From the NCBI GenBank assembly GCA_944380405.1, contig CALWHO010000181.1:74-64073 (forward strand): DNA of 64,000 nt. Reading direction: 5' to 3'. A program made the position numbers and the translations under genes. The notes below the pieces were generated by a model that did not search any database, was not told the DNA's origin, and saw nothing but the letters and a program-made list of their open reading frames with translations. Positions within the stretch are counted from its first letter, which is position 1, and every line of letters starts with the position of its first letter. Source of the DNA: an uncultured Lachnospiraceae bacterium. GTDB taxonomy: Bacteria; Bacillota; Clostridia; Lachnospirales; Anaerotignaceae. Shown here piece by piece: positions 1,722 to 25,424 of this stretch.

Positions 1722-1844
1722 ATATATTCCTCCTTTATTTTTTATTATAAAACGATACCATACAATATATTTAATATCTATATAAGTGACAAAAAACAGA
1801 TGAGTTGTATGGGTACAATATTTAGAATTGTAATAATACAATTT

Positions 1845-2145
1845 CGTCAAAGGCTCATTTCATTCAAGCCTTTGACGAGAAGACAGAAGTATAAAGCACA
1901 TGGTCAGCACTTTTCTTCGAAAAGTCAGCTTCGCTGACCCGCACATCTTTGTGGGTGCCAAGTTCCATCGGCTAAAAAGCCTTGAAACTCACTGTCGGCA
2001 TTTTCCTTTGGAAAACGGCTTTGCCGTCTTAGTTCGTCAGGTGCTTTGCTTTTACTCGTCGGAAGTGAATTCCGCCTGCGGATTCCATTTGGGAAACTCT
2101 TCGTTTCCCAAACCTTTCCGCTAACTAAATGTGATAAAAAATATT
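1845..2145 (+). repeat. E-family structured intergenic repeat, copy E1
   Basis: E1 is homologous to 4316-4511 (+) and to 23429-23711 (-). The shared right module is ctcgtcggaagtgaattccgcctgcggatt...gggaaactcttcgtttccc...cctttccgc. The shared left hairpin is tcaaaggc-tcatttcattcaa-gcctttga. Confidence 0.8.
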
Positions 2146-2695: not shown

Positions 2696-3553
2696 TCAGT
2701 TCCTTTCTTCTTTGATTTTTTCTAAAAAGCTGTATGGTATTTTTAAATTGCCTTTTCCTGTGCCAAGGAATATATCTTTTTTGTTAAGACCATGGAAGTC
2801 ACTGCCGCCACTAAACAAAAGTTCTTCTTCTGTGGCTATGCGGGTAATTTCTCTTTCCTGCTCGCTTTTGTATGTGGAATACATTACTTCCATACCCTTA
2901 AGACCAATTTCTTTAAGGTCTTTTACCATATTTCTTATGTTGTGGTAGTCCATACCATAAAGAGTAGGGTGAGCAAGTATTGCTACTCCGCCGCTTTTTG
3001 TAATAATATCTATTGCTTCTTTGGGCGAAATAAGGTTTCGTGGCACAAAGCCAGGCATGCCAGAAGATATATATTTTTCAAAGGCTTCCTTTATTGTGGA
3101 TATATAGCCTTTTTTAACCATAAGCCTTGCATAATGGGCTCTTGTTATGTTTCCATAGTGTGAAAACTCCCTAAGCTCATCAAGTGTCATAGGAAAGCCT
3201 ATTGATGTAAGCTTTTCAGCCATTTTTTCATTTCTTGAAAGTCTTTCTGCACTTATTTCTTTTGTTTTTTCTATAATATATGGATTTAAATGGTCAACAA
3301 AAAGACCTACAATATGGATTTCTTTTTTATTGCCTAAAAAGTTATAGTATGCTGCAAGTTCTATACCGCTTATGGCTTCTACGCCGTATTTTTCGCCGGC
3401 TTTTTTAAAGTCTTCTATGCCGCTAACTGTGTCGTGGTCTGTAAGGGCAACAGCTTTTAAATTTAAATTTGATGCTTCTGCCATTATTTCCTCAGGGGTA
3501 TATGTTCCATCGGAAAATGTGGAATGTGTATGAAGATCAATATATTTTTCCAT
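2696..3553 (-). CDS. PHP-domain phosphoesterase (TrpH/YciV-like)
   Basis: The protein starts MEKYIDLHTHSTFSDG and contains ALTDHD and GGSDFHG motifs. The ATG at 3553 follows AAAGAGGTGA. The upstream part of the listed ORF has no support. Confidence 0.8.
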   Translation of the reverse strand: MEKYIDLHTHSTFSDGTYTPEEIMAEASNLNLKAVALTDHDTVSGIEDFKKAGEKYGVEAISGIELAAYYNFLGNKKEIHIVGLFVDHLNPYIIEKTKEISAERLSRNEKMAEKLTSIGFPMTLDELREFSHYGNITRAHYARLMVKKGYISTIKEAFEKYISSGMPGFVPRNLISPKEAIDIITKSGGVAILAHPTLYGMDYHNIRNMVKDLKEIGLKGMEVMYSTYKSEQEREITRIATEEELLFSGGSDFHGLNKKDIFLGTGKGNLKIPYSFLEKIKEERN

Positions 3554-4066: not shown

Positions 4067-4075
4067 TGATATAAT
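4067..4075 (+). promoter_or_regulatory. candidate extended -10 (TGaTATAAT) upstream of scfA
   Basis: catGaTATAAT lies about 45 nt upstream of the scfA ATG. I saw no clear -35 box. Confidence 0.3.
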
Positions 4076-4117
4076 GCAGTAAGATATTTTTGATTATTTT
4101 AAAGGAGGACGATATAT

Positions 4118-4258
4118 ATGAAACATGTTAAAACATTAAATACATGCATGCTTAAAAATACAATCGCTAAAGGCGGCTGCGGCGAATGCCAGACATCATG
4201 TCAGTCAGCTTGCAAAACATCATGTACTGTAGCAAACCAGGCATGTGAAAACAGATAA
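4118..4258 (+). CDS. scfA: SCIFF (six cysteines in forty-five residues) ranthipeptide precursor, 46 aa
   Basis: This gene is not in the ORF track because it is under 60 aa. My hand translation is MKHVKTLNTCMLKNTIAKGGCGECQTSCQSACKTSCTVANQACENR. It has an AAAGGAGGA RBS, matches the GGCGECQTSCQSACKTSC signature, and sits upstream of the cognate radical SAM gene. Confidence 0.9.
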   Translation: MKHVKTLNTCMLKNTIAKGGCGECQTSCQSACKTSCTVANQACENR

Positions 4259-4315: not shown

Positions 4316-4511
4316 TTTAGGCAAAATCAGGATTTTGCCTAGGTTACTGGCGGTATAAAAAGAAAGTTCCTGCGGCAATATCTGCCTTGAAACTTTCTTT
4401 TTTCCTCGACGGAAGTCAATTCCGTCTGCGGATTACAATAAGGAACCTCTTTGGTTCCCTATACCTTCCAGCTGTTTTATTTTTTTAAAATTATATTTGT
4501 TTTGAAGGTAT
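4316..4511 (+). repeat. E-family structured intergenic repeat, copy E2 (short variant)
   Basis: E2 shares with E1 and E3 the motif ggtataaaa, the stem agaaagtt/aactttct, and the module cctcgacggaagtcaattccgtctgcggatt...ggaacc-tcttt-ggttcc...ccttcc. Confidence 0.75.
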
Positions 4512-4580: not shown

Positions 4581-5948
4581 ATGATCCATAAATTTAGTAT
4601 GAATGGCGTTAATGTTGTTATGGACGTAAATAGCGGTGCTGTTCATGTGGTGGATGATATTATATACGACCTTGCAGATGCATTTGAAAACATGAGCGAG
4701 GCAGAAATTATAAATAAATTTTCAGACAAGTATTCTGAAGAAGAAATAAAAGAAGCCGTTTCTGAAATGAAAGAGCTTAAAGATAATGGCATGCTTTTTA
4801 CAGAAGACGAGTATGAAAACGTACTTGATATGGTAGGCAAAAGACAGCCAGTTGTAAAGGCGCTTTGCCTTCATATTGCCCATGACTGTAACTTAAAATG
4901 CAGATACTGTTTTGCAGAAGAAGGCGAATACCATGGTCACAGAAGCCTTATGAGTGCCAAGGTAGGAAAGGCTGCCATAGATTTTATAATCAAAAACAGC
5001 GGCTCAAGAAGAAACCTTGAAGTTGACTTCTTTGGCGGTGAGCCTTTAATGAATTTTGAAGTAGTTAAGGAAATTGTGGAATACGCAAGAGAGGAAGAAG
5101 TTAAATACGGCAAAAACTTCCGTTTCACAATTACTACAAACGGTATACTCCTTGATGACGAAATTCAGGACTACATAAATAAAAACATGCACAACGTAGT
5201 TATAAGCCTTGACGGTAGAAAAGAAGTAAACGACAGAATGCGTCCAAGAGCTGGAGGACAGGGCAGCTATGACGTTATAGTGCCTAAGTTTATAAAGCTT
5301 GCTGAAAGCAGAAATCAGACAGACTATTACATAAGAGGAACATTTACAAGACATAACCTTGATTTTTCAAAAGACGTTCTTCATATGGCAGATTTAGGTT
5401 TTAAACAGATTTCAGTTGAGCCAGTTGTAGGCGAAGAAACAGAAGACTATACAATAAGAGAAGAAGATCTTCCAAAGGTTTACGAAGAATATGAAAAGCT
5501 TGCATGTGAGCTTTATGAAAGACATAAAGAAGGCGGTAAGAGAGATTTTAATTTCTTCCACTTTATGATTGACCTTTCAGGCGGTCCATGTGTGGCTAAA
5601 AGACTTGTAGGCTGTGGCAGTGGTACAGAATATCTTGCCGTAACTCCAGAAGGCGACCTTTATCCATGTCATCAGTTTGTAGGTCTTGATGACTTCAAAA
5701 TGGGTACAGTTTTTGACGGCGTAGAAAGAATGGATATACGTGAAGAATTTGAAAAATGCAACGTATATGCTAAAGAGGACTGCAAAAAATGCTGGTGCAG
5801 ATTCTACTGCAGTGGCGGCTGTGCAGCAAATGCATATCAGCTTAACGGCGATATATTAAAGCCTTATAAGCTTAGCTGTGATTTACAGAAAAAACGTGTT
5901 GAATGTGCAATTATGATTAAGGCAAAGGAATTTCAGGAGGAAAACTAA
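4581..5948 (+). CDS. scfB: SCIFF radical SAM maturase (thioether cross-link forming, SPASM domain)
   Basis: The 455 aa protein has the CNLKCRYC radical SAM motif and a C-terminal Cys-rich SPASM region (CGSG...CHQF...CKKCWCRFYCSGGC). It is adjacent to scfA. Confidence 0.9.
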   Translation: MIHKFSMNGVNVVMDVNSGAVHVVDDIIYDLADAFENMSEAEIINKFSDKYSEEEIKEAVSEMKELKDNGMLFTEDEYENVLDMVGKRQPVVKALCLHIAHDCNLKCRYCFAEEGEYHGHRSLMSAKVGKAAIDFIIKNSGSRRNLEVDFFGGEPLMNFEVVKEIVEYAREEEVKYGKNFRFTITTNGILLDDEIQDYINKNMHNVVISLDGRKEVNDRMRPRAGGQGSYDVIVPKFIKLAESRNQTDYYIRGTFTRHNLDFSKDVLHMADLGFKQISVEPVVGEETEDYTIREEDLPKVYEEYEKLACELYERHKEGGKRDFNFFHFMIDLSGGPCVAKRLVGCGSGTEYLAVTPEGDLYPCHQFVGLDDFKMGTVFDGVERMDIREEFEKCNVYAKEDCKKCWCRFYCSGGCAANAYQLNGDILKPYKLSCDLQKKRVECAIMIKAKEFQEEN

Positions 5949-11627: not shown

Positions 11628-12353
11628 ATGAATATACAGTGGTATCCGGGACACATGACAAAAACAAGGCGTATGATGGAAGAAAACATATCCCTTGTTG
11701 ATGTTGTAATTGAGCTTATAGACGCCAGAATACCTTACAGCAGCAAAAATCCTGAAATAGACGAACTGGCAAAAAATAAGTACAGAATTATAGTTATGAA
11801 TAAATCAGACCTTGCAGATGACAGGGCAACTGAAATCTGGACAAAATATTTTGAAGATAAGGGCTTTAAAGTGCTTCTTACAGATGCTAAAAGCGGTAAG
11901 GGCGTAAACTCCGTAACAAATATGGCAAAAGACCTTATGGCTGAAAAAATAGCCCGTCTGAAACAAAAGGGCAGAATATTTGTGCCTGTAAGAGCCATGA
12001 TAGTAGGTATACCTAACGTAGGCAAGTCAACATTTATAAACAAGTATGTGGGCAAAACTACTGCTAAAACTGGGGATAAACCTGGCGTAACAAGAGGCAA
12101 ACAGTGGATAAAAGTAAAGAAAGACTTTGAACTTCTTGATACTCCTGGTATACTTTGGCCTAAGTTTGAAGACCCTGAAGTTGGTCTTAAACTGGCATTT
12201 ACAGGAGCTATAAATGACGATATACTTGATATGGAAACAGCTGCCTATGAGTTTATAAACCTTATGGTTGCAACATATCCAGACAGGTTAAGAGAAAGAT
12301 ATAATGTTGAGTTTGATACAATAGAGCCTGTTCATGAGATATTTGAAAAATAG
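11628..12353 (+). CDS. rbgA: ribosome biogenesis GTPase A (RbgA/YlqF), N-terminal 241 aa as the frame stands
   Basis: The circularly permuted GTPase motifs NKSDL and GIPNVGKST...DTPG are present. The ORF stops at a TAG immediately after the A5 run at 12346-12350. Confidence 0.85.
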   Translation: MNIQWYPGHMTKTRRMMEENISLVDVVIELIDARIPYSSKNPEIDELAKNKYRIIVMNKSDLADDRATEIWTKYFEDKGFKVLLTDAKSGKGVNSVTNMAKDLMAEKIARLKQKGRIFVPVRAMIVGIPNVGKSTFINKYVGKTTAKTGDKPGVTRGKQWIKVKKDFELLDTPGILWPKFEDPEVGLKLAFTGAINDDILDMETAAYEFINLMVATYPDRLRERYNVEFDTIEPVHEIFEK

Positions 12354-12574
12354 GCAAAGCAAGAGGTTTTGTTGTTAAGGGCGGCGAAATAGATCGTGGT
12401 AGATGTGCCAAAATACTTATGGACGAATTTAGAGGCGGTAAGCTGGGTAAAATGACTCTTGAACTTCCTGAAGACATAAAGGATATGACAGAAGAAATTA
12501 AGAAAAGAGAGCAGGAAAAAAAGCAGCGTGACAGAGAAAGAAAAGCTGAGTACAGACGAAAAAATAATAAGTAA
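12350..12574 (+). pseudogene. rbgA: C-terminal 74 aa of RbgA encoded in the -1 frame
   Basis: Hand translation from 12350 gives IGKARGFVVKGGEIDRGRCAKILMDEFRGGKLGKMTLELPED..., the conserved RbgA C-terminal domain. A sixth A in the run would fuse it in frame to 11628..12350. Confidence 0.75.
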
Positions 12575-12619
12575 TATTTTCTTAATTTAACGTATTGTTT
12601 ATATAAAGGAGATATTGCC

Positions 12620-14246: not shown

Positions 14247-14591
14247 TTACTCTTCTTCTGATGAAATAGATATTATTTCAAGGCAGGAATGAATTATTTT
14301 TTCCAACTGCTGGTGATATTTTGGGTCAATGTTATAGAAATGTTCGTTAAGGTCTATTTTGTCGATATTTTTCCAAAGTATTTTATCGGAGGATATACCA
14401 AGAACTTCGCATATTTTCTTTAATGTTGTAAGAGAGATACCTGCATAGCCTCTTTCAACGTCATAAAGAAAATTAATGCTCACATCTATTAATTCTGAAA
14501 GCTGTTCTCTTGTGTAGCCATTTTTTTCTCTGTAAAATCGAATATTTTGACCAACAAGAACGTTGATTTCTTTTTTCTCTTTTGCTCGCAT
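14247..14591 (-). CDS. XRE-family HTH transcriptional regulator, paralogue 1 (114 aa)
   Basis: The N-terminal HTH_XRE region reads VGQNIRFYREKNGYTREQLSELIDVS...ISLTTLKKICEVLGIS. The start is an ATG after GAGG. Confidence 0.8.
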   Translation of the reverse strand: MRAKEKKEINVLVGQNIRFYREKNGYTREQLSELIDVSINFLYDVERGYAGISLTTLKKICEVLGISSDKILWKNIDKIDLNEHFYNIDPKYHQQLEKIIHSCLEIISISSEEE

Positions 14592-14626
14592 AAAAACCTC
14601 AAATTAAAAAATATTTATATATTTGA

Positions 14627-14995
14627 TTAATTTCTCGCTTTTTTGTTATAATCATTTTTAGATGCAAGGGATATTATTTCTAATTGTTTTTGTATAAGTT
14701 CGTCTATAACACCCATATACTCATCTGGCAAATGGGATAAACGCTCAGAAATATCAATTTTATTATCAGTGTTTTTCCAAAGTAAACGGTCAGCAGAAAT
14801 GCCTAAAACTTCACACAACTTTTTTAATGTAGTTATAGAAATTCCAGTGCTGCCTGTTTCTGCATCGTATAAAAAGCGAGGACTAACTTCAATTAATTCG
14901 GCTAATTTTTCTCTGCTATAGCCTAATTTATCCCTATGAAGTCTTATATTTTCACCAACAATAATGTTTATTTCCTTTTTTTCTTTTGATAGCAA
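14627..14995 (-). CDS. XRE-family HTH transcriptional regulator, paralogue 2 (122 aa)
   Basis: It has the same architecture and is visibly similar to paralogue 1 across the HTH and C-terminal region. The start codon is TTG, after GAAAGG. Confidence 0.75.
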   Translation of the reverse strand: MLSKEKKEINIIVGENIRLHRDKLGYSREKLAELIEVSPRFLYDAETGSTGISITTLKKLCEVLGISADRLLWKNTDNKIDISERLSHLPDEYMGVIDELIQKQLEIISLASKNDYNKKARN

Positions 14996-15017
14996 TAAAA
15001 TCTACCTTTCATTTAAT

Positions 15018-15368
15018 TTATAGTTTTTTATTTAATAAAAGTGAAATCATTTCAAGTTGAGTTGTTATAATTTTTTCTAAATATGGGTGGTATTTTGGGT
15101 CAATATGTGCAATCATATCTTGTAGAGTTGTTGGTTGGTTTTGGTTATTCCAAAGTATATTATCGGCAGAAACACCCAGAACTTCGCATATTTTCTTTAA
15201 TGTTGTAAGAGAAATACCAACAAAGCCTAATTCACAATCGGCTAAAAAACGAGGGCTTACACCTATTAATTCAGATAATTTTTCTCTATTTAAGCCTGCT
15301 TTTTCTCTATAAAATCTAATGTTTTGTCCTACTGTAATATTGATTTCTTTTTTATCTTTAGCTCTCAA
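15018..15368 (-). CDS. XRE-family HTH transcriptional regulator, paralogue 3 (116 aa)
   Basis: I trimmed the ORF to the TTG at 15368, eight nt after GGAGGTGG. This gives (M)RAKDKKEINITVG, colinear with paralogue 1 (MRAKEKKEINVLVG). Confidence 0.7.
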   Translation of the reverse strand: MRAKDKKEINITVGQNIRFYREKAGLNREKLSELIGVSPRFLADCELGFVGISLTTLKKICEVLGVSADNILWNNQNQPTTLQDMIAHIDPKYHPYLEKIITTQLEMISLLLNKKL

Positions 15369-15425
15369 TAATACCACCTCCACTATATTGTCGTTTACTA
15401 CTACAATTTTATGTGTGGGTAATAG

Positions 15426-15454
15426 TTGAAAAAATGGAGTTTTAACAGTATAAT
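15426..15454 (+). promoter_or_regulatory. sigma-A promoter of the SLOG/DUF1273 gene
   Basis: TTGAAA, a 17 nt spacer and TATAAT. The listed ORF start at 15426 is the TTG of the -35 box itself. Confidence 0.55.
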
Positions 15455-15497
15455 TAAACTTGTAATACACGAATTATTATATAAAGAAGGTGTTCTT

Positions 15498-15983
15498 TTG
15501 TATTCTAAAGAAAATACAGTTTGTTTTACAGGTCACAGAAAAATAAGAAAGTCCGACAAGGATTTATATACAAAAATTTATAATGTTGTTGAAAGTCTTA
15601 TATTACAGGGGTTTTTATGCTTTTGTGCAGGTGGTGCAAGAGGTTTTGACACTATGGCAGCAGAGGCAGTTTTAAGTCTTAGGGAAAAGTACGCTGATAT
15701 AAAATTAGTGCTGGTGCTGCCCTTTTTGGAGCAGTATAAAAAAGAAGAGTCTTGGACTGATGAAGAAATAGATAGATTTATTAATTTGACCAAAAAAGCA
15801 GACAGCGTTGTTTATTTGCAAAGAGATTATTCAAAAAGCTGTTATTATAAACGAAATCAGCTTCTTGTGGAGTATTCTTCCGTTTGTGTTTGCTACAAAA
15901 GCAGAAAAAGCGGGGGAACGGCATATACTGTGGAACTGGCTCAAAAAGAGGGATTAAAAATTATAAATTTAATAGAGAAGTAA
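15498..15983 (+). CDS. SLOG-superfamily DUF1273 (YpsA-like) protein
   Basis: The sequence VCFTGHRK...GGARGFDTMAAEAVL...GGTAYTV is characteristic of DUF1273. I prefer the TTG at 15498, which follows GAAGGTG and lies downstream of the promoter. Confidence 0.7.
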   Translation: MYSKENTVCFTGHRKIRKSDKDLYTKIYNVVESLILQGFLCFCAGGARGFDTMAAEAVLSLREKYADIKLVLVLPFLEQYKKEESWTDEEIDRFINLTKKADSVVYLQRDYSKSCYYKRNQLLVEYSSVCVCYKSRKSGGTAYTVELAQKEGLKIINLIEK

Positions 15984-16016
15984 AAAAGAGAGGGCATAAG
16001 TCCTCTTTTTTTTTAT
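15984..16016 (+). terminator. intrinsic terminator after the SLOG gene
   Basis: The stem agagg/cctct has G-U and A-U extensions and is followed by a T run of about 10. Confidence 0.6.
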
Positions 16017-16021
16017 TTCTT

Positions 16022-16226
16022 GGCAAGGATTATAAATACTTTATTTTAAAAAGTATTTGCGAGAGGGCCCATCTCAGAGTTGCGAAGCCCGAAGTGCCCT
16101 CTCGTGCTCTCCCATCTTGGGCGACGCTTTTCGTATGTGTACGGCTCTTGCCATTTACAAAATAATATTTAAATTCTTTTTTACAAAAAAATAAACCCAT
16201 CAGCCATGAACAACAAAAGGCGTGGC
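16022..16226. repeat. F2 structured repeat, unit A
   Basis: The unit reads ggcaagNaYtataaat...aaaagtatttgcgagagggccc...gccctctcg...cttgggcgacgcttttcgtatgtgtacggctcttgcc...cccatcagccatgaacaacaaaaggcgtggc. It is nearly identical to unit C. Confidence 0.85.
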
Positions 16227-16270
16227 TTACTTCTTTTCTCTCTTACCCTTGAAAAAAGTTCTTATTTCTC

Positions 16271-16600
16271 GGTAAGAACTATAAATTCTATATTTTACAA
16301 AAGTATTTGCGAGAGGGCCCATCAATGCACCCGACGAACAAGGGCGGCAAAGCCGGTTTGCGAAGCAAAATGCTGACAGGGAGCCCCGAAGCCCTGACCC
16401 CCTCTCGCGCTCTCCCATCTTGGGCGACGCTTTTCGTATGTGTACGGCTCTTGCCCTTTACAAAATAAATTCTTTTTAACTTTACTTTAAATAAAAAATA
16501 ACCCACTATCCACGAAATACAAAAGGCGTGGCCATAGGGTTGGGGTTCAAGGGGAAGGGACACGGCCTTCGCAACTACGAGTTCTCCCTTCCCCTTGGAG
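16271..16600. repeat. F2 structured repeat, unit B, with inserted sub-module M and a G-rich hairpin extension
   Basis: It has the same framework as units A and C. The apex of the first hairpin is replaced by cccgacgaacaagggcggcaaagccggtttgcgaagcaaaatgctgacaggg. It is followed by the 12 bp stem aaggggaaggga/tcccttcccctt (16549-16596). Confidence 0.85.
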
Positions 16601-16707
16601 AAAACTTTATTGCCATTTATAAAAGCCAACTTCTCGTCGGCTTCTTCCTAAAGGAAGAAGGTCGGCGACCGTAAGCCAAATCTCTCCAACAAAACTCTCC
16701 ACTCCTC

Positions 16708-16980
16708 GGCAAGTACTATAAATCCTCTGTTTTACAAAAGTATTTGCGAGAGGGCCCATCTCAGAGTTGCGAAGCCCGAAGTGCCCTCTCGCGCTCTCCC
16801 ATCTTGGGCGACGCTTTTCGTATGTGTACGGCTCTTGCCCTTTACAAAATAATATTTAAATTCTTGTTTACAAAAAAATAAACCCATCAGCCATGAACAA
16901 CAAAAGGCGTGGCAAACAGGTTGGGTTTTAAGGGGAAAGAGCACAGCCTTCGCATACTTCGAGCGTCCCTTCCCCTTGAA
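16708..16980. repeat. F2 structured repeat, unit C, with the G-rich hairpin extension
   Basis: 16729-16913 is nearly identical to unit A. The extension at 16930-16977 is homologous to 16549-16596. Confidence 0.85.
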
Positions 16981-17007
16981 ATAAACTCTTTTCAAATTTC
17001 CATTAAT

Positions 17008-17048
17008 AAAAACATATCCCACCAGCCATGAATAACAAAAGGCGTGGC
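17008..17048. repeat. F2 partial unit D (terminal hairpin only)
   Basis: cccaccagccatgaataacaaaaggcgtggc matches the 3' end of units A-C. Confidence 0.7.
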
Positions 17049-17051
17049 AAA

Positions 17052-17080
17052 TAAAAAGCTGCCCCTCTGGACAGCCTTTC
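17052..17080 (-). terminator. intrinsic terminator of the dnaI-like gene
   Basis: On the minus strand the hairpin gctgtcc-aga-gggcagc is followed by TTTTT. Confidence 0.55.
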
Positions 17081-17082
17081 TT

Positions 17083-18066
17083 TTATCCTCTGAATTTTTT
17101 AAGTATCCTTATGTCGCTTCCTACAAACTTAAGTATCCTGTACTCACCCATAATACGGCTTGATACTCTTTCGCCGTATTTTGCCGCCAAATCCTCCAGT
17201 GTAAAATTGGTGGATATTATAACAGGCTTTTTGTCTATGCTTCTTGTGTTAATGATGTTGAAAAGTGCAGAAACAGTAAATGAAGTTGAAAACTCTGTTC
17301 CAAGGTCGTCTATAATAAGTAAGTCAGCAGAAGCGATGTCCTCCATGCAGTCGGAAAACTCTTTTTCCTCATCACCGAAACGCTCTTTTTCTAATTCCTT
17401 AAAAAGCTGTGACGCTGTTACATACATAACAGTAAAGCCTTTTTTAACAACTTCTTTTGCTATGGCACCACAAAGATATGTCTTGCCAAGACCAGGGTTG
17501 CCGTAAAAAAGCAGATTGCCGCTGTCTTTGCCCATGTTTTGAGCAAACTTTAAGCATGTGTTATATATTTTTTCTATATTTTTTCTATATGACATGCCAA
17601 AATCATTTTTTTCGTCACTGTAGTAAGAAAAATCGAAATTTTCAAATGTTTCGTACTTTCTTCCTACACCTGACATGTTGTATGCCGTATCCATAAGAAG
17701 CTGTGCAAAGCAGCTGCACATTTTGCCGTTAACAAAGCCAGTATCAGAGCATTTTTCACATTCGTACTTAATTTTAAGTTCGTCTTCGTCAATGTTATTT
17801 TCTTTTAAAAGCTCTTTTTTCCTGTTAATAAGAATGTCTTTCTCCTGCTGAAACGCCTCATTAGCGTTTTGGCTGTTGTCAGGTGAAAGAGCAGCTTTTT
17901 TTGCAGCCTCTATGCCAAGTATGTTTATTTTTCTGTCTATGTCTTCAATTTCAGGCACTTTTTTATAAACCTCGTCACGCCTTTGGTGCATCTGCCTTTG
18001 GGCGTTCATTCTTTTCTGGTCCATAAGTGAAAGTATTTTTTTGTATATAGCCAAACGACTTTCCAT
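17083..18066 (-). CDS. DnaI/DnaC-type helicase-loader ATPase
   Basis: It has an N-terminal Zn-ribbon-like CEKCSDTGF..GKMCSC, Walker A (GNPGLGKT) and Walker B (LLIIDDLG). Its ATG overlaps the stop of the upstream DnaD-domain gene (TAATG). Confidence 0.8.
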   Translation of the reverse strand: MESRLAIYKKILSLMDQKRMNAQRQMHQRRDEVYKKVPEIEDIDRKINILGIEAAKKAALSPDNSQNANEAFQQEKDILINRKKELLKENNIDEDELKIKYECEKCSDTGFVNGKMCSCFAQLLMDTAYNMSGVGRKYETFENFDFSYYSDEKNDFGMSYRKNIEKIYNTCLKFAQNMGKDSGNLLFYGNPGLGKTYLCGAIAKEVVKKGFTVMYVTASQLFKELEKERFGDEEKEFSDCMEDIASADLLIIDDLGTEFSTSFTVSALFNIINTRSIDKKPVIISTNFTLEDLAAKYGERVSSRIMGEYRILKFVGSDIRILKKFRG

Positions 18067-23273: not shown

Positions 23274-23395
23274 TATATTTACTCTCCTTACATTTTTTAA
23301 ATCATAAAAAAATTCATTTAATAAAGAAATAATAATATATTATAGGTTATTATGCAACAAAAAACTTTCTTAAGACAGTATTTGCCACATTCCTT

Positions 23396-23427
23396 AAAAA
23401 GAACCTCCACTTTTGGAGGTTCTTTTT
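23396..23427 (-). terminator. distal copy of the duplicated pyrG terminator hairpin, with full U-tract
   Basis: aaaaagaacctcc-actttt-ggaggttcttttt. On the minus strand the stem is followed by TTTTT. Confidence 0.65.
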
Positions 23428-23428
23428 A

Positions 23429-23711
23429 AAGCAGTAGAAAAAATAGTTTTCACACCATTTTACTAATGCGGAAAGGCTTGGGAAACGAAGAGTTTCCCAA
23501 ATTTAATCCGCAGTAAAGAACCCGACGAACAAGGGCAGCACAGCTGTTTTGCGTAAGCAAAATTCCGACGGAATTCACTTCCGACGAGGAAAAACGACAA
23601 GTTTCTAGGCATAAATGCCTATGAAACTTACGTTTTATACCTATGTCTCTCGGCAAAGACTTGAATGTAATGAGTCTTTGCCGAAGGGTAGTGGACATCG
23701 TCCACACCCTC
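23429..23711 (-). repeat. E-family structured intergenic repeat, copy E3 (carries sub-module M)
   Basis: The reverse complement aligns with E1 and E2 at three points: the hairpin gcaaagac-tcattacattcaa-gtctttgc, the motif ggtataaaa, and the module cctcgtcggaagtgaattccgtc[insert]tgcggatt...gggaaactcttcgtttccc..cctttccgc. Confidence 0.8.
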
Positions 23712-23739
23712 AAAGAACCTCCGCTTTGGGAGGTTCTTT
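23712..23739 (-). terminator. proximal copy of the duplicated pyrG terminator hairpin, with weak U-tract
   Basis: aaagaacctcc-gctttg-ggaggttcttt starts 2 nt after the pyrG stop. It is identical to 23398-23425 at 26 of 28 positions. Confidence 0.55.
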
Positions 23740-23741
23740 AA

Positions 23742-25424
<1,683 letters not shown>

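Follow-up and report, generated by a model that had tools for sequence, protein, structure and literature searches.

Intergenic repeats whose structured modules vary in number between strains are exemplified by the modular boxA-boxB(n)-boxC elements (BOX) of the pneumococcus and the STAR elements of Staphylococcus aureus, which are built from modules of 45-60 nt and occupy some 100 loci or more in each genome. The miniature elements derived from IS200/IS605 insertion sequences (PATEs) are very small and have two internal hairpins, conserved ends and no terminal inverted repeats. Tandem multi-copy loci are known for small RNAs (sRNAs), as in LhrC1-4 of Listeria and OmrA/OmrB of Escherichia coli, and for the type I toxin-antitoxin repeats LDR and SIB/QUAD. 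Systems that pair REP sequences with RAYT transposases have been described mainly in Proteobacteria. In those bacteria the REP/BIME sequences and the REPINs are mobilised by the RAYT enzymes (PMC3116915, PMC3337134). The present work concerns an array of tandem repeats, designated F2, which occupies positions 16018-17048 of a 64,000-nt stretch (the window) of contig CALWHO010000181.1 from an uncultured Lachnospiraceae bacterium, and which consists, according to the repeat analysis, of three head-to-tail composite units (A, B and C) and a partial fourth (D).

The reading of this locus that we favour, with moderate confidence, is that of a non-coding cluster of mosaic repeats that is restricted to one lineage and belongs with REP/BIME or BOX sequences in kind. 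The alleles compared below show an array that expands, contracts and rearranges, evidently by recombination among its own sub-repeats, and that acts as a breakpoint for larger rearrangements; one of its hairpins has also received a small inserted element, M. If the favoured reading is correct, the locus adds a case from the Firmicutes (Lachnospirales) to a class of recombination-prone intergenic mosaic repeats that has been documented mainly in Proteobacteria and a few pathogens. Its main scientific value would lie in M and in a companion family, F1, which appear to represent active miniature hairpin elements with an unusual pattern of conservation, shared with DNA associated with insertion sequences and phages elsewhere. 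F2, F1 and M match no described family in the resources searched, while the kind of feature they constitute is a familiar one.

Architecture and alleles of the F2 array

The array lies in a gap of 1,099 bp between the convergent stop codons of a SLOG/YpsA-family gene (the SLOG gene; 15426-15983, plus strand, with Pfam matches to YpsA and DNA_processg_A) and a gene for a DnaI/DnaC-type helicase loader (dnaI; 17083-18066, minus strand). It is bordered on the left by the bidirectional intrinsic terminator of the SLOG gene (15982-16013, found on both strands by the terminator scan) and on the right by the dnaI terminator hairpin (17055-17082, minus strand), which is kept in the related contigs L001, L006, L007, L022 and L023. 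A first-pass annotation of the window, made by a model from the letters alone, had described the gap as filled by GC-rich structured repeats, and both the positions it gave for them and their composition are borne out by the repeat analysis, by exact-copy counts and by the GC content of the gap, which is 0.434 with a 60-nt peak of 0.70, against 0.19-0.25 in repeat-free intergenic gaps and 0.365 in the window as a whole.

Units A, B and C share the plan S-H1-K-L-T-H2, which defines a unit of about 330 nt that is present three and a half times. A 37-nt block, CTTGGGCGACGCTTTTCGTATGTGTACGGCTCTTGCC, occurs in exactly three copies (at 16116, 16419 and 16803), compared with zero matches in shuffled sequences; the head AAAGTATTTGCGAGAGGGCCCATC likewise has three copies in the array, and the hairpin CCAYGAAYAACAAAAGGCGTGG has four, one of them at 17026-17047. 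Over 183 nt, A and C share 97% identity, and the right-hand part of unit B (16456-16596) is 87% identical to the unit of the related contig L015. The start-to-start spacings of the repeats are 250, 303, 384, 437 and 687 nt.

Unit A illustrates the modules. Module S (16018-16058, plus strand) is AT-rich and contains GGYAAG, here GGCAAGG at 16022-16028, which forms the 5' arm of stem P1, followed by TATAAAT (16031-16037) and an AT hairpin, P2. The TATAAAT motif is invariant, being unchanged in A, B, C and L015 though the neighbouring positions differ, and the only change in the S module of L025 is a P2 loop base. Hairpin H1 (16059-16105, plus strand) has in unit A a 10-bp stem, GCGAGAGGGC/GCCCTCTCG(T), and a 27-nt loop with GCGAAGC and CCGAAG; the general form of its 10-bp GC stem is GCGAGAGGGC/GCCCTCTCGC. 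The H1 of unit A is identical in L015, L025 and L001, and L006 carries a GGGGG/CCCCC variant that represents one double-sided change. Module K (16106-16152, plus strand) comprises the bulged hairpin P4 (16106-16127) followed by TTTT, the hairpin P5 (CGTATGTGTACG, 16132-16143, of the form CGTA-TGTG-TACG) and CTTGCC (16147-16152), the 3' arm of P1, which can pair with the GGCAAG of module S to close a multi-branch fold on either strand (z-scores of -2.7 and -3.0). In L023 and L012, P4 is swapped for another, perfect hairpin, GCGTTAATCC-TGTA-GGGGTAACGC, flanked by A5 and T5.

The AT-rich linker L and hairpin T follow (16153-16226, minus strand), with T itself (GCCATG-12 nt-CGTGGC, 16203-16226) having an A-rich loop of 12 nt that is conserved; read on the minus strand, T is succeeded by the U-run TTTATTTTTTT. 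As a minus-strand terminator T is good in L015 and degraded in the window: the L015 copy, with a perfect 15-bp stem and a U-run (-26.7 kcal/mol, z -6.2), is predicted to be a canonical intrinsic terminator acting in the same direction as dnaI. Unit A ends in a remnant of the 3' arm of H2, CTTACCCTTGAAAAAAG, recognized by reading the sequence against the ends of H2 in B, C and L011, and the A/B junction (together 16227-16267) holds a terminator-like GTTCTTA-8 nt-TAAGAAC followed by T6 on the minus strand.

Unit B consists of modules S-H1-K (16268-16455, plus strand), with an H1 (16309-16408) that is enlarged by the nested element M, and of a linker L', an extended hairpin T' (inner stem 16510-16531) and H2 (16549-16596), which together span 16456-16596. 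H2 is the G-rich hairpin AAGGGGAAGGGA/TCCCTTCCCCTT, and its loop agrees with the reverse complement of the H1 loop in 16 of 19 positions. The spacer between B and C (16597-16704) contains the hairpin TTCTTCC-TAAA-GGAAGAA and, on the minus strand, GCCGAC-GAGAA-GTTGGC followed by TTTTAT; no second copy of it was found in the window or in the additional lineage DNA (about 13 kb) that was searched. Unit C (S-H1-K-L-T-H2, 16705-16977, plus strand) has its TATAAAT at 16717-16723, H1 at 16746-16792, K at 16793-16839, T at 16890-16913 and an imperfect H2 at 16930-16977. Partial unit D (16978-17048, minus strand) is made up of a linker L2 and a hairpin T (17025-17048), and is a paralogue of the L-T segment of unit C, 72% identical to it at an offset of 135 nt; L006 has no separate copy of it and carries a single fused L-T instead.

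Both stems that the first-pass annotation had named, GCGAGAGGGC/GCCCTCTCG and the G-rich AAGGGGAAGGGA/TCCCTTCCCCTT, are thus present. Its assignment of the latter to units B and C holds in that both carry it, with the qualifications that the copy in C is imperfect (AAGGGGAAAGAG) and that unit A also keeps the 3'-arm remnant. The CCACG/CGTGG stem of the unit B hairpin, which it had called compensated, is in fact a one-sided T-to-C change that turns a G-T pair into G-C, without any double change.

The dynamics of the array emerge from contigs with identical or near-identical DnaI or SLOG proteins taken from ENA, NCBI and Logan assemblies, which include eleven same-lineage contigs with differing alleles. 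In L001 and L002, whose DnaI and SLOG proteins are identical to those of the window, there is one unit plus D, in a gap of 412 bp that is exactly 687 bp shorter. The single unit is A-like as far as 16104 and C-like from 16153, so that the crossover lies inside 48 nt which A and C have exactly in common. Because this junction is shorter than the usual final k-mer sizes of assemblers and recurs in two independent samples, the single-unit allele is provisionally taken to be real. A sister lineage with 93-95% nucleotide identity (L013, L015, L016 and L011/L020) has a single unit whose left side resembles A and whose right side resembles B, with H2 present once in L013 and twice in tandem in L011. 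L006 is without the 135-bp H2-L2-T sub-repeat. The junctions of the simple length variants all fall within long shared segments.

Larger rearrangements are also represented. Beside dnaI, L012/L021 and L023 have a unit without S and H1 (K'-L-T-M-H2), with the different perfect hairpin at P4, and three Cu_amine_oxidN1 genes replace SLOG, while L015, which is from the same sample as L012/L021 (ERZ27251022), has a rubrerythrin gene after SLOG and one unit. In this sample the array thus has its SLOG side on one contig and its dnaI side on another (L015 3559-6558; L021 10985-20984), and the dnaI side in L021 runs into the three large Cu_amine_oxidN1 surface-protein genes and a gene for an ECF-type sigma factor. 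In L026 (799-910; a Logan contig that encodes the same SLOG protein as L025), another terminator stands behind SLOG and an inverted H2 lies beyond it, which suggests that the whole intergenic segment may be able to invert. Eight short contigs end inside the array, which consequently breaks metagenomic assemblies, and which would allow strains of this uncultured gut organism to be typed with high sensitivity.

The nested element M, the companion family F1 and their surroundings

The additional length of the first hairpin of unit B is due to M, a separate element of 54 nt in the H1 loop (16324-16377, plus strand), which consists of AATGCACCCGACGAACAAGGGC, hairpin 1, hairpin 2 (TTTGC-GAA-GCAAA) and then ATGCTGAC. 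Further copies occur in the window at 23520-23575 (plus strand) and 2044-1992 (minus strand), in lineage contigs (L012, ~4070-4150; L023, ~3160-3330, two copies; L007, 1780-1842) and, as found by a pattern search, in three JGI metagenome contigs of other organisms (L017, 387-445; L018, 6091-6153; L019, 2020-2080). The copies are 54-75 nt long, with a YCGAC tail and no terminal inverted repeats. In the F2 alleles of related strains M has the opposite orientation and lies either between T and H2 (L012 and L023) or within the H2 loop (L007 and L023), and L013 is empty at both of the sites that are filled in L012, L023 and L007 (by 72 and 75 nt), with no duplication of the flanks. At 23513-23570 M interrupts a copy of F1, and the F1 copies at 2076-2050 and 4400-4434 are uninterrupted. 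Genes read from their translations, with no Pfam scan, place the M of L017 between a tyrosine recombinase gene and an IS91-type gene with a zinc-binding N-terminus, and show that of L019, in antisense orientation, splitting the open reading frame (ORF) of an IS110-family transposase; a viral contig in IMG/VR, taken from accession numbers to be from the same metagenome as L018, also has M. The element is thus spread over Lachnospirales chromosomes, insertion-sequence loci of the IS110 and IS91 types and a phage-like contig, the latter two from other gut metagenomes.

The segment ACCCGACGAACAAGGG, which forms a 3-bp stem with the nine-base loop GACGAACAA, is essentially invariant in nine copies of M. 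The two hairpins that follow vary freely in sequence and keep their pairing, and they form in the minimum-free-energy folds of most copies; the closing GMA...UKC triplet pair covaries in all nine copies, which fall into only two sequence subfamilies, so that one event in evolution may account for the covariation. To the left of M the flanks include CCATC (twice), TGACC and CGCAG among others, and no TnpA gene was seen in the available DNA. A search of the literature for the M sequence returned only an unrelated primer, and there is no Rfam match. Taken together, these features mark M as a miniature mobile element that inserts without target duplication, and it resembles miniatures of the IS200/IS605 type in lacking terminal inverted repeats and target duplications, in having internal hairpins and in being polymorphic for insertion.

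F1 is a dispersed family in which GCGGAAAGG is followed by an inner hairpin that covaries, by AATCCGC and by CGGAATTCACTTCCGACGAG with further sequence; copies of it lie at 1830-2130 (minus strand), 4383-4470 (minus strand) and 23465-23741 (plus strand) of the window and at 20435-20505 of L021. It too is polymorphic for insertion: between pyrG and the SEC-C gene the window has 468 bp, L021 has 152 bp and L008 has 129 bp, the copy at 23465-23741 being missing in strain L021 and in L008, which is from a related genus. One F1 copy occupies the 5' leader of the gene for an ECF riboflavin-transporter S component (1212-1721), where no flavin mononucleotide (FMN) riboswitch was detected though one might be expected. 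Another lies in the spacer between a radical-SAM gene (4581-5948, plus strand) and, upstream of it, the coding sequence of a 45-residue cysteine-rich peptide, MKHVKTLNTCMLKNTIAKGGCGECQTSCQSACKTSCTVANQACENR (4120-4258, plus strand), which looks like the precursor of a SCIFF-type ranthipeptide. With F2, F1 and M, the genome appears to host several families of GC-rich hairpin repeats within very AT-rich intergenic DNA.

GCGAAGC and CCGAAGG caps form exceptionally stable DNA mini-hairpins and are present in single-strand initiation signals (PMC13037366). In the window GCGAAGC occurs 8 times compared with 3.5 expected, with four of the eight inside repeats, and hairpins capped by C-GAA-G with a stem of at least 5 bp number 9 compared with about 3 expected, with three in repeats. 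The enrichment of GCGAAGC in repeats is a hint and not proof, and the broader idea of a preference for GAA-capped hairpins is statistically weak.

The surroundings of the array are ordinary, in that all of the window genes that were checked are housekeeping genes. In a related genus whose DnaI is 55% identical, the 139 bp downstream of dnaI lead to a different neighbour and contain no array. The GC skew of the window (1-64000) flips from positive to negative exactly at the array, near 16000, and it tracks gene orientation all along the window; no dif-like site was found there, and a replication terminus at the array is possible but unsupported. Directly upstream of the SLOG gene are three tandem paralogous genes for XRE-family helix-turn-helix proteins (14247-15470, minus strand; 114, 122 and 150 residues), which share 68-76% DNA identity over 231 nt and of which the sister lineage L011/L020 has only two, shorter copies. 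Farther away, an ORF for an RbgA/YlqF-type GTPase (11628-12353) encodes 241 residues and is followed by a gap of 266 bp (12354-12619), whereas its orthologue in L001 and L020 is called at 315 residues; the window copy may contain a frameshift or a sequencing error.

Weighing the readings of the locus

The mechanism that we envisage for the mosaic cluster has several components. The alleles show that whole units, L-T sub-units and copies of H2 are gained and lost through unequal homologous recombination and gene conversion between sub-repeats, and the filled and empty sites show that M (54-75 nt) inserts into the H1 and H2 hairpins or beside them and duplicates no target site; on a larger scale the array is a synteny breakpoint in one strain and is inverted in another. 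It may be tolerated because the gap between converging terminators is a safe harbour. Since H2 and T directly follow the dnaI stop codon in the L011 lineage, some of its hairpins may secondarily be used as terminators or structures of the 3' untranslated region for the dnaD-dnaI operon. The hairpin elements themselves may move through single-stranded DNA in the manner of REP/RAYT or IS200/IS605, a route suggested by the lack of target duplications and terminal repeats, the conserved ends, the covarying stems and the GCGAAGC/CCGAAGG caps.

Several observations weigh against this reading. No further copies of F2 were found by BLAST-short or nhmmer --max in the 64-kb window and the extra lineage DNA, so that F2 modules are confined to this locus in the DNA searched and the unit is not seen dispersed as REP, BOX and miniature inverted-repeat transposable element (MITE) families are. 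A scan of GTDB representative genomes for the K core returned only two chance matches (in an alphaproteobacterium and a planctomycete) with a pattern that is too strict and misses the L006 and L011 variants. No transposase, integrase or invertase is encoded in the 64-kb window, and the argument for movement through single-stranded DNA is drawn from sequence features. Finally, the S-H1 segment differs at only 1 of 86 nt between lineages, which hints at function.

This last point bears directly on the main alternative, a possible but clearly less probable explanation, namely that the array is a tandem set of paralogous sRNA genes centred on S-H1, with a plus-strand transcript running from TATAAAT through H1 to P4 and its U-tract (about 95 nt, or about 165 nt in unit B), or a minus-strand transcript that would start at an AT-rich promoter in L, cover K-H1-S and stop at the following terminator, and with a copy number that varies as for other multi-copy sRNAs, the M insertions marking degenerating copies. 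Between the window and the L015/L021 lineages, 8-18% of four-fold sites and 17-22% of other intergenic positions differ, and against this background S-H1 is nearly invariant, TATAAAT is fixed between variable flanks and K has 4 differences in 49 nt, with only a loop base changed in L025. Unusual similarity is likewise seen in the final 190 nt of the SLOG gene, and the similarity of S-H1 could reflect either constraint or recent homogenisation, possibly by a recombination tract. Also in keeping with sRNA genes are the multi-branch core that GGCAAG/CTTGCC can close on either strand, the double-sided change in the H1 of L006, the replacement of P4 by a perfect hairpin in L023, the restriction of the unit to this locus in the DNA examined and the T modules, which as minus-strand terminators would insulate the units from one another. 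Most one-sided stem changes replace C by T on the plus strand, where G-U pairs are thereby retained (an H1 base pair, P4, P5, P1 and T); they number five or six against one in the opposite direction, a difference that is suggestive but not significant. On the other hand, TATAAAT has neither an acceptable -35 box nor an extended -10 TG upstream of it, promoter-like sites in the region do not exceed chance (6 compared with 4.0 expected in shuffles), the P4 of the window is weak and bulged and is followed by only four U, and both strands yield equally plausible transcript models. Insertions of 54-72 nt interrupt the loops of H1 and H2, which an sRNA would be expected to use; the unit near dnaI in L012 and L023 lacks S-H1, and that in L026 is inverted. 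There is no Rfam match, and no homologue was found outside the species group in scans of which that of GTDB used a pattern too strict for known variants. If the S-H1 core is transcribed, it would constitute a new sRNA family with a strain-variable gene copy number.

Somewhat less probable again, and doubtful in our view, is the idea that the array is the footprint of an undescribed ultra-small mobile element system built on M, in which the combination of invariant single-stranded bases and variable paired stems would be the signature of a functional folded nucleic acid, so that M would be the substrate of an HUH-type enzyme or a small ribozyme-like RNA (both being candidates) and not a decaying transposon, and the H1 and H2 hairpins of F2 would be landing pads for M or its older relatives. 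An unlikely explanation is that the locus is a recombination or attachment hot spot at which T and H2 serve as recombinase sites, either as att-like scars of successive integrations or as the borders of an invertible, shufflon-like segment, which would account for the split and inverted alleles. The break of synteny in ERZ27251022 does fall exactly at the array (dnaI, unit and three Cu_amine_oxidN1 genes on one side; SLOG, unit and rubrerythrin gene on the other), H2 does lie in the opposite orientation directly after SLOG in L026, the H1 and H2 loops are mutually inverted repeats and many contigs end here; but neither the window nor the 10-kb flanks of the split allele encode an integrase, an invertase or a transposase, the split-allele junctions in L021 and L015 showed no genes of mobile elements, the DNA inserted in L021 carries ordinary surface-protein genes, no tRNA or tmRNA gene and no dif-like site is present, and the simple length variants have their junctions in long shared segments, as homologous recombination predicts. 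Two further readings, as a decayed gene for a protein and as a CRISPR-like array, are effectively refuted. ORFs of 113, 96 and 93 residues do span the region, but they are translations of the repeat, as the first-pass annotation had proposed (KGKSRTHTKSVAQDGRAREG occurs in both of the long minus-strand ORFs), eight ORFs have no Pfam match at E<=1, no ORF preceded by a Shine-Dalgarno (SD) sequence is conserved across the three units, and the 113-residue ORF has no homologue among 5.8 billion proteins. The annotation's statements that the gap contains no credible gene and is not a CRISPR array accordingly stand, the latter on the ground that units of 250-440 nt show no short repeat/spacer alternation. 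The protein search with the 113-residue ORF was also aimed at dispersed repeat copies called as genes, of which it found none, and gene callers left the corresponding gap empty in every related contig.

The first-pass annotation had left the nature of the repeats undecided between a cluster of MITE-like insertions, an array of non-coding RNA genes and protein-binding or att-like sites. Independent MITE insertions do not suit the unit as a whole, because it is absent elsewhere in about 77 kb of lineage DNA, while a small mobile element is indeed found inside the unit; a better fit is the tandem duplication of a local composite unit that has been invaded by such an element. A classical MITE was also considered and rejected, since the terminal complementarity of the unit is limited to the 6-bp GGCAAG/CTTGCC, which is broken in L015, and no flanks are duplicated around the units or around M at four pairs of filled and empty sites. 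Type I toxin-antitoxin repeats of the LDR/SIB kind were set aside as well, there being no SD-preceded ORF of at least 12 residues common to the three units; the only one shared by B and C encodes 22 residues, is not hydrophobic and has a weak SD sequence. A sigma-54 promoter at TTGGCA...TATAAAT was considered, rpoN being in the window, and by inspection the site lacks the GG-N10-GC spacing. M has a hammerhead-like CYGACGA, but no GAAA follows stem II and there is no match to an Rfam ribozyme.

Searches of the databases for known families gave negative results. Rfam 15 yielded 0 matches at the gathering thresholds over the whole window, which was one of the checks the first-pass annotation had proposed; the best sub-threshold match at 15900-17150 scored 29 bits against a threshold of 80, on terminators, and searches by E-value at 15900-17150, 1650-2200 and 23280-23760 gave only chance or terminator-type matches. 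Nothing similar to the array was found in PLSDB plasmids, INPHARED phages or IMG/VR, and BLAST in distant mode against plasmids and phages with the array and F1 returned nothing, or 23-nt chance matches in Caulobacter phages. The K core was found 0 times in viral contigs and 0 times in JGI metagenomes, so that these scans and that of GTDB, whose pattern excludes the L006 and L011 variants, revealed no homologue outside the species group, within which DnaI is 96-100% identical and beyond which the next relatives drop to 55%. Homologues of DnaI put the organism among the Lachnospirales, close to Anaerotignaceae, Tyzzerella and Epulopiscium-like bacteria.

Comparison with described systems

Of the systems described at the outset, the tandem sRNA and toxin-antitoxin loci resemble F2 in consisting of head-to-tail intergenic units of a few hundred nucleotides with hairpins and a terminator, whose copy number varies between strains. 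F2 differs from them in having no convincing promoter or conserved small ORF, and in that its loops are interrupted by insertions.

M is best compared with the PATEs, with which it shares insertion without target duplication in either orientation and presence in several unrelated genomes. It departs from them in that no 4-5-nt target next to its end is established, given the differing flanks, in that the sequence of its hairpin 1 is free to vary and in that no TnpA gene has been identified.

Like F2, the BOX and STAR elements are structured, non-coding intergenic repeats of Firmicutes that are GC-richer than their hosts and vary between strains in the number of their modules. The module sequences of F2 are different, and its unit appears to be specific to one locus.

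The REP/BIME sequences set against F2 have units about ten times shorter, a GTAG-type head that F2 lacks and a dispersal that is not seen here, and we know of no RAYT in this organism. In other respects the two agree. REP/BIME sequences are GC-rich imperfect palindromes in extragenic space, located typically after the 3' ends of genes and between convergent genes, and F2 likewise has pairs of inverted palindromes at gene 3' ends, its H1 and H2 loops being complementary at 16 of 19 positions and its cluster lying between two convergent terminators. Both form mosaics of alternating orientation with linker motifs, both vary between strains, and both may terminate transcription or stabilize mRNA; and for movement of the kind carried out by Y1 transposases, as for the insertions seen here, no target duplication is expected.

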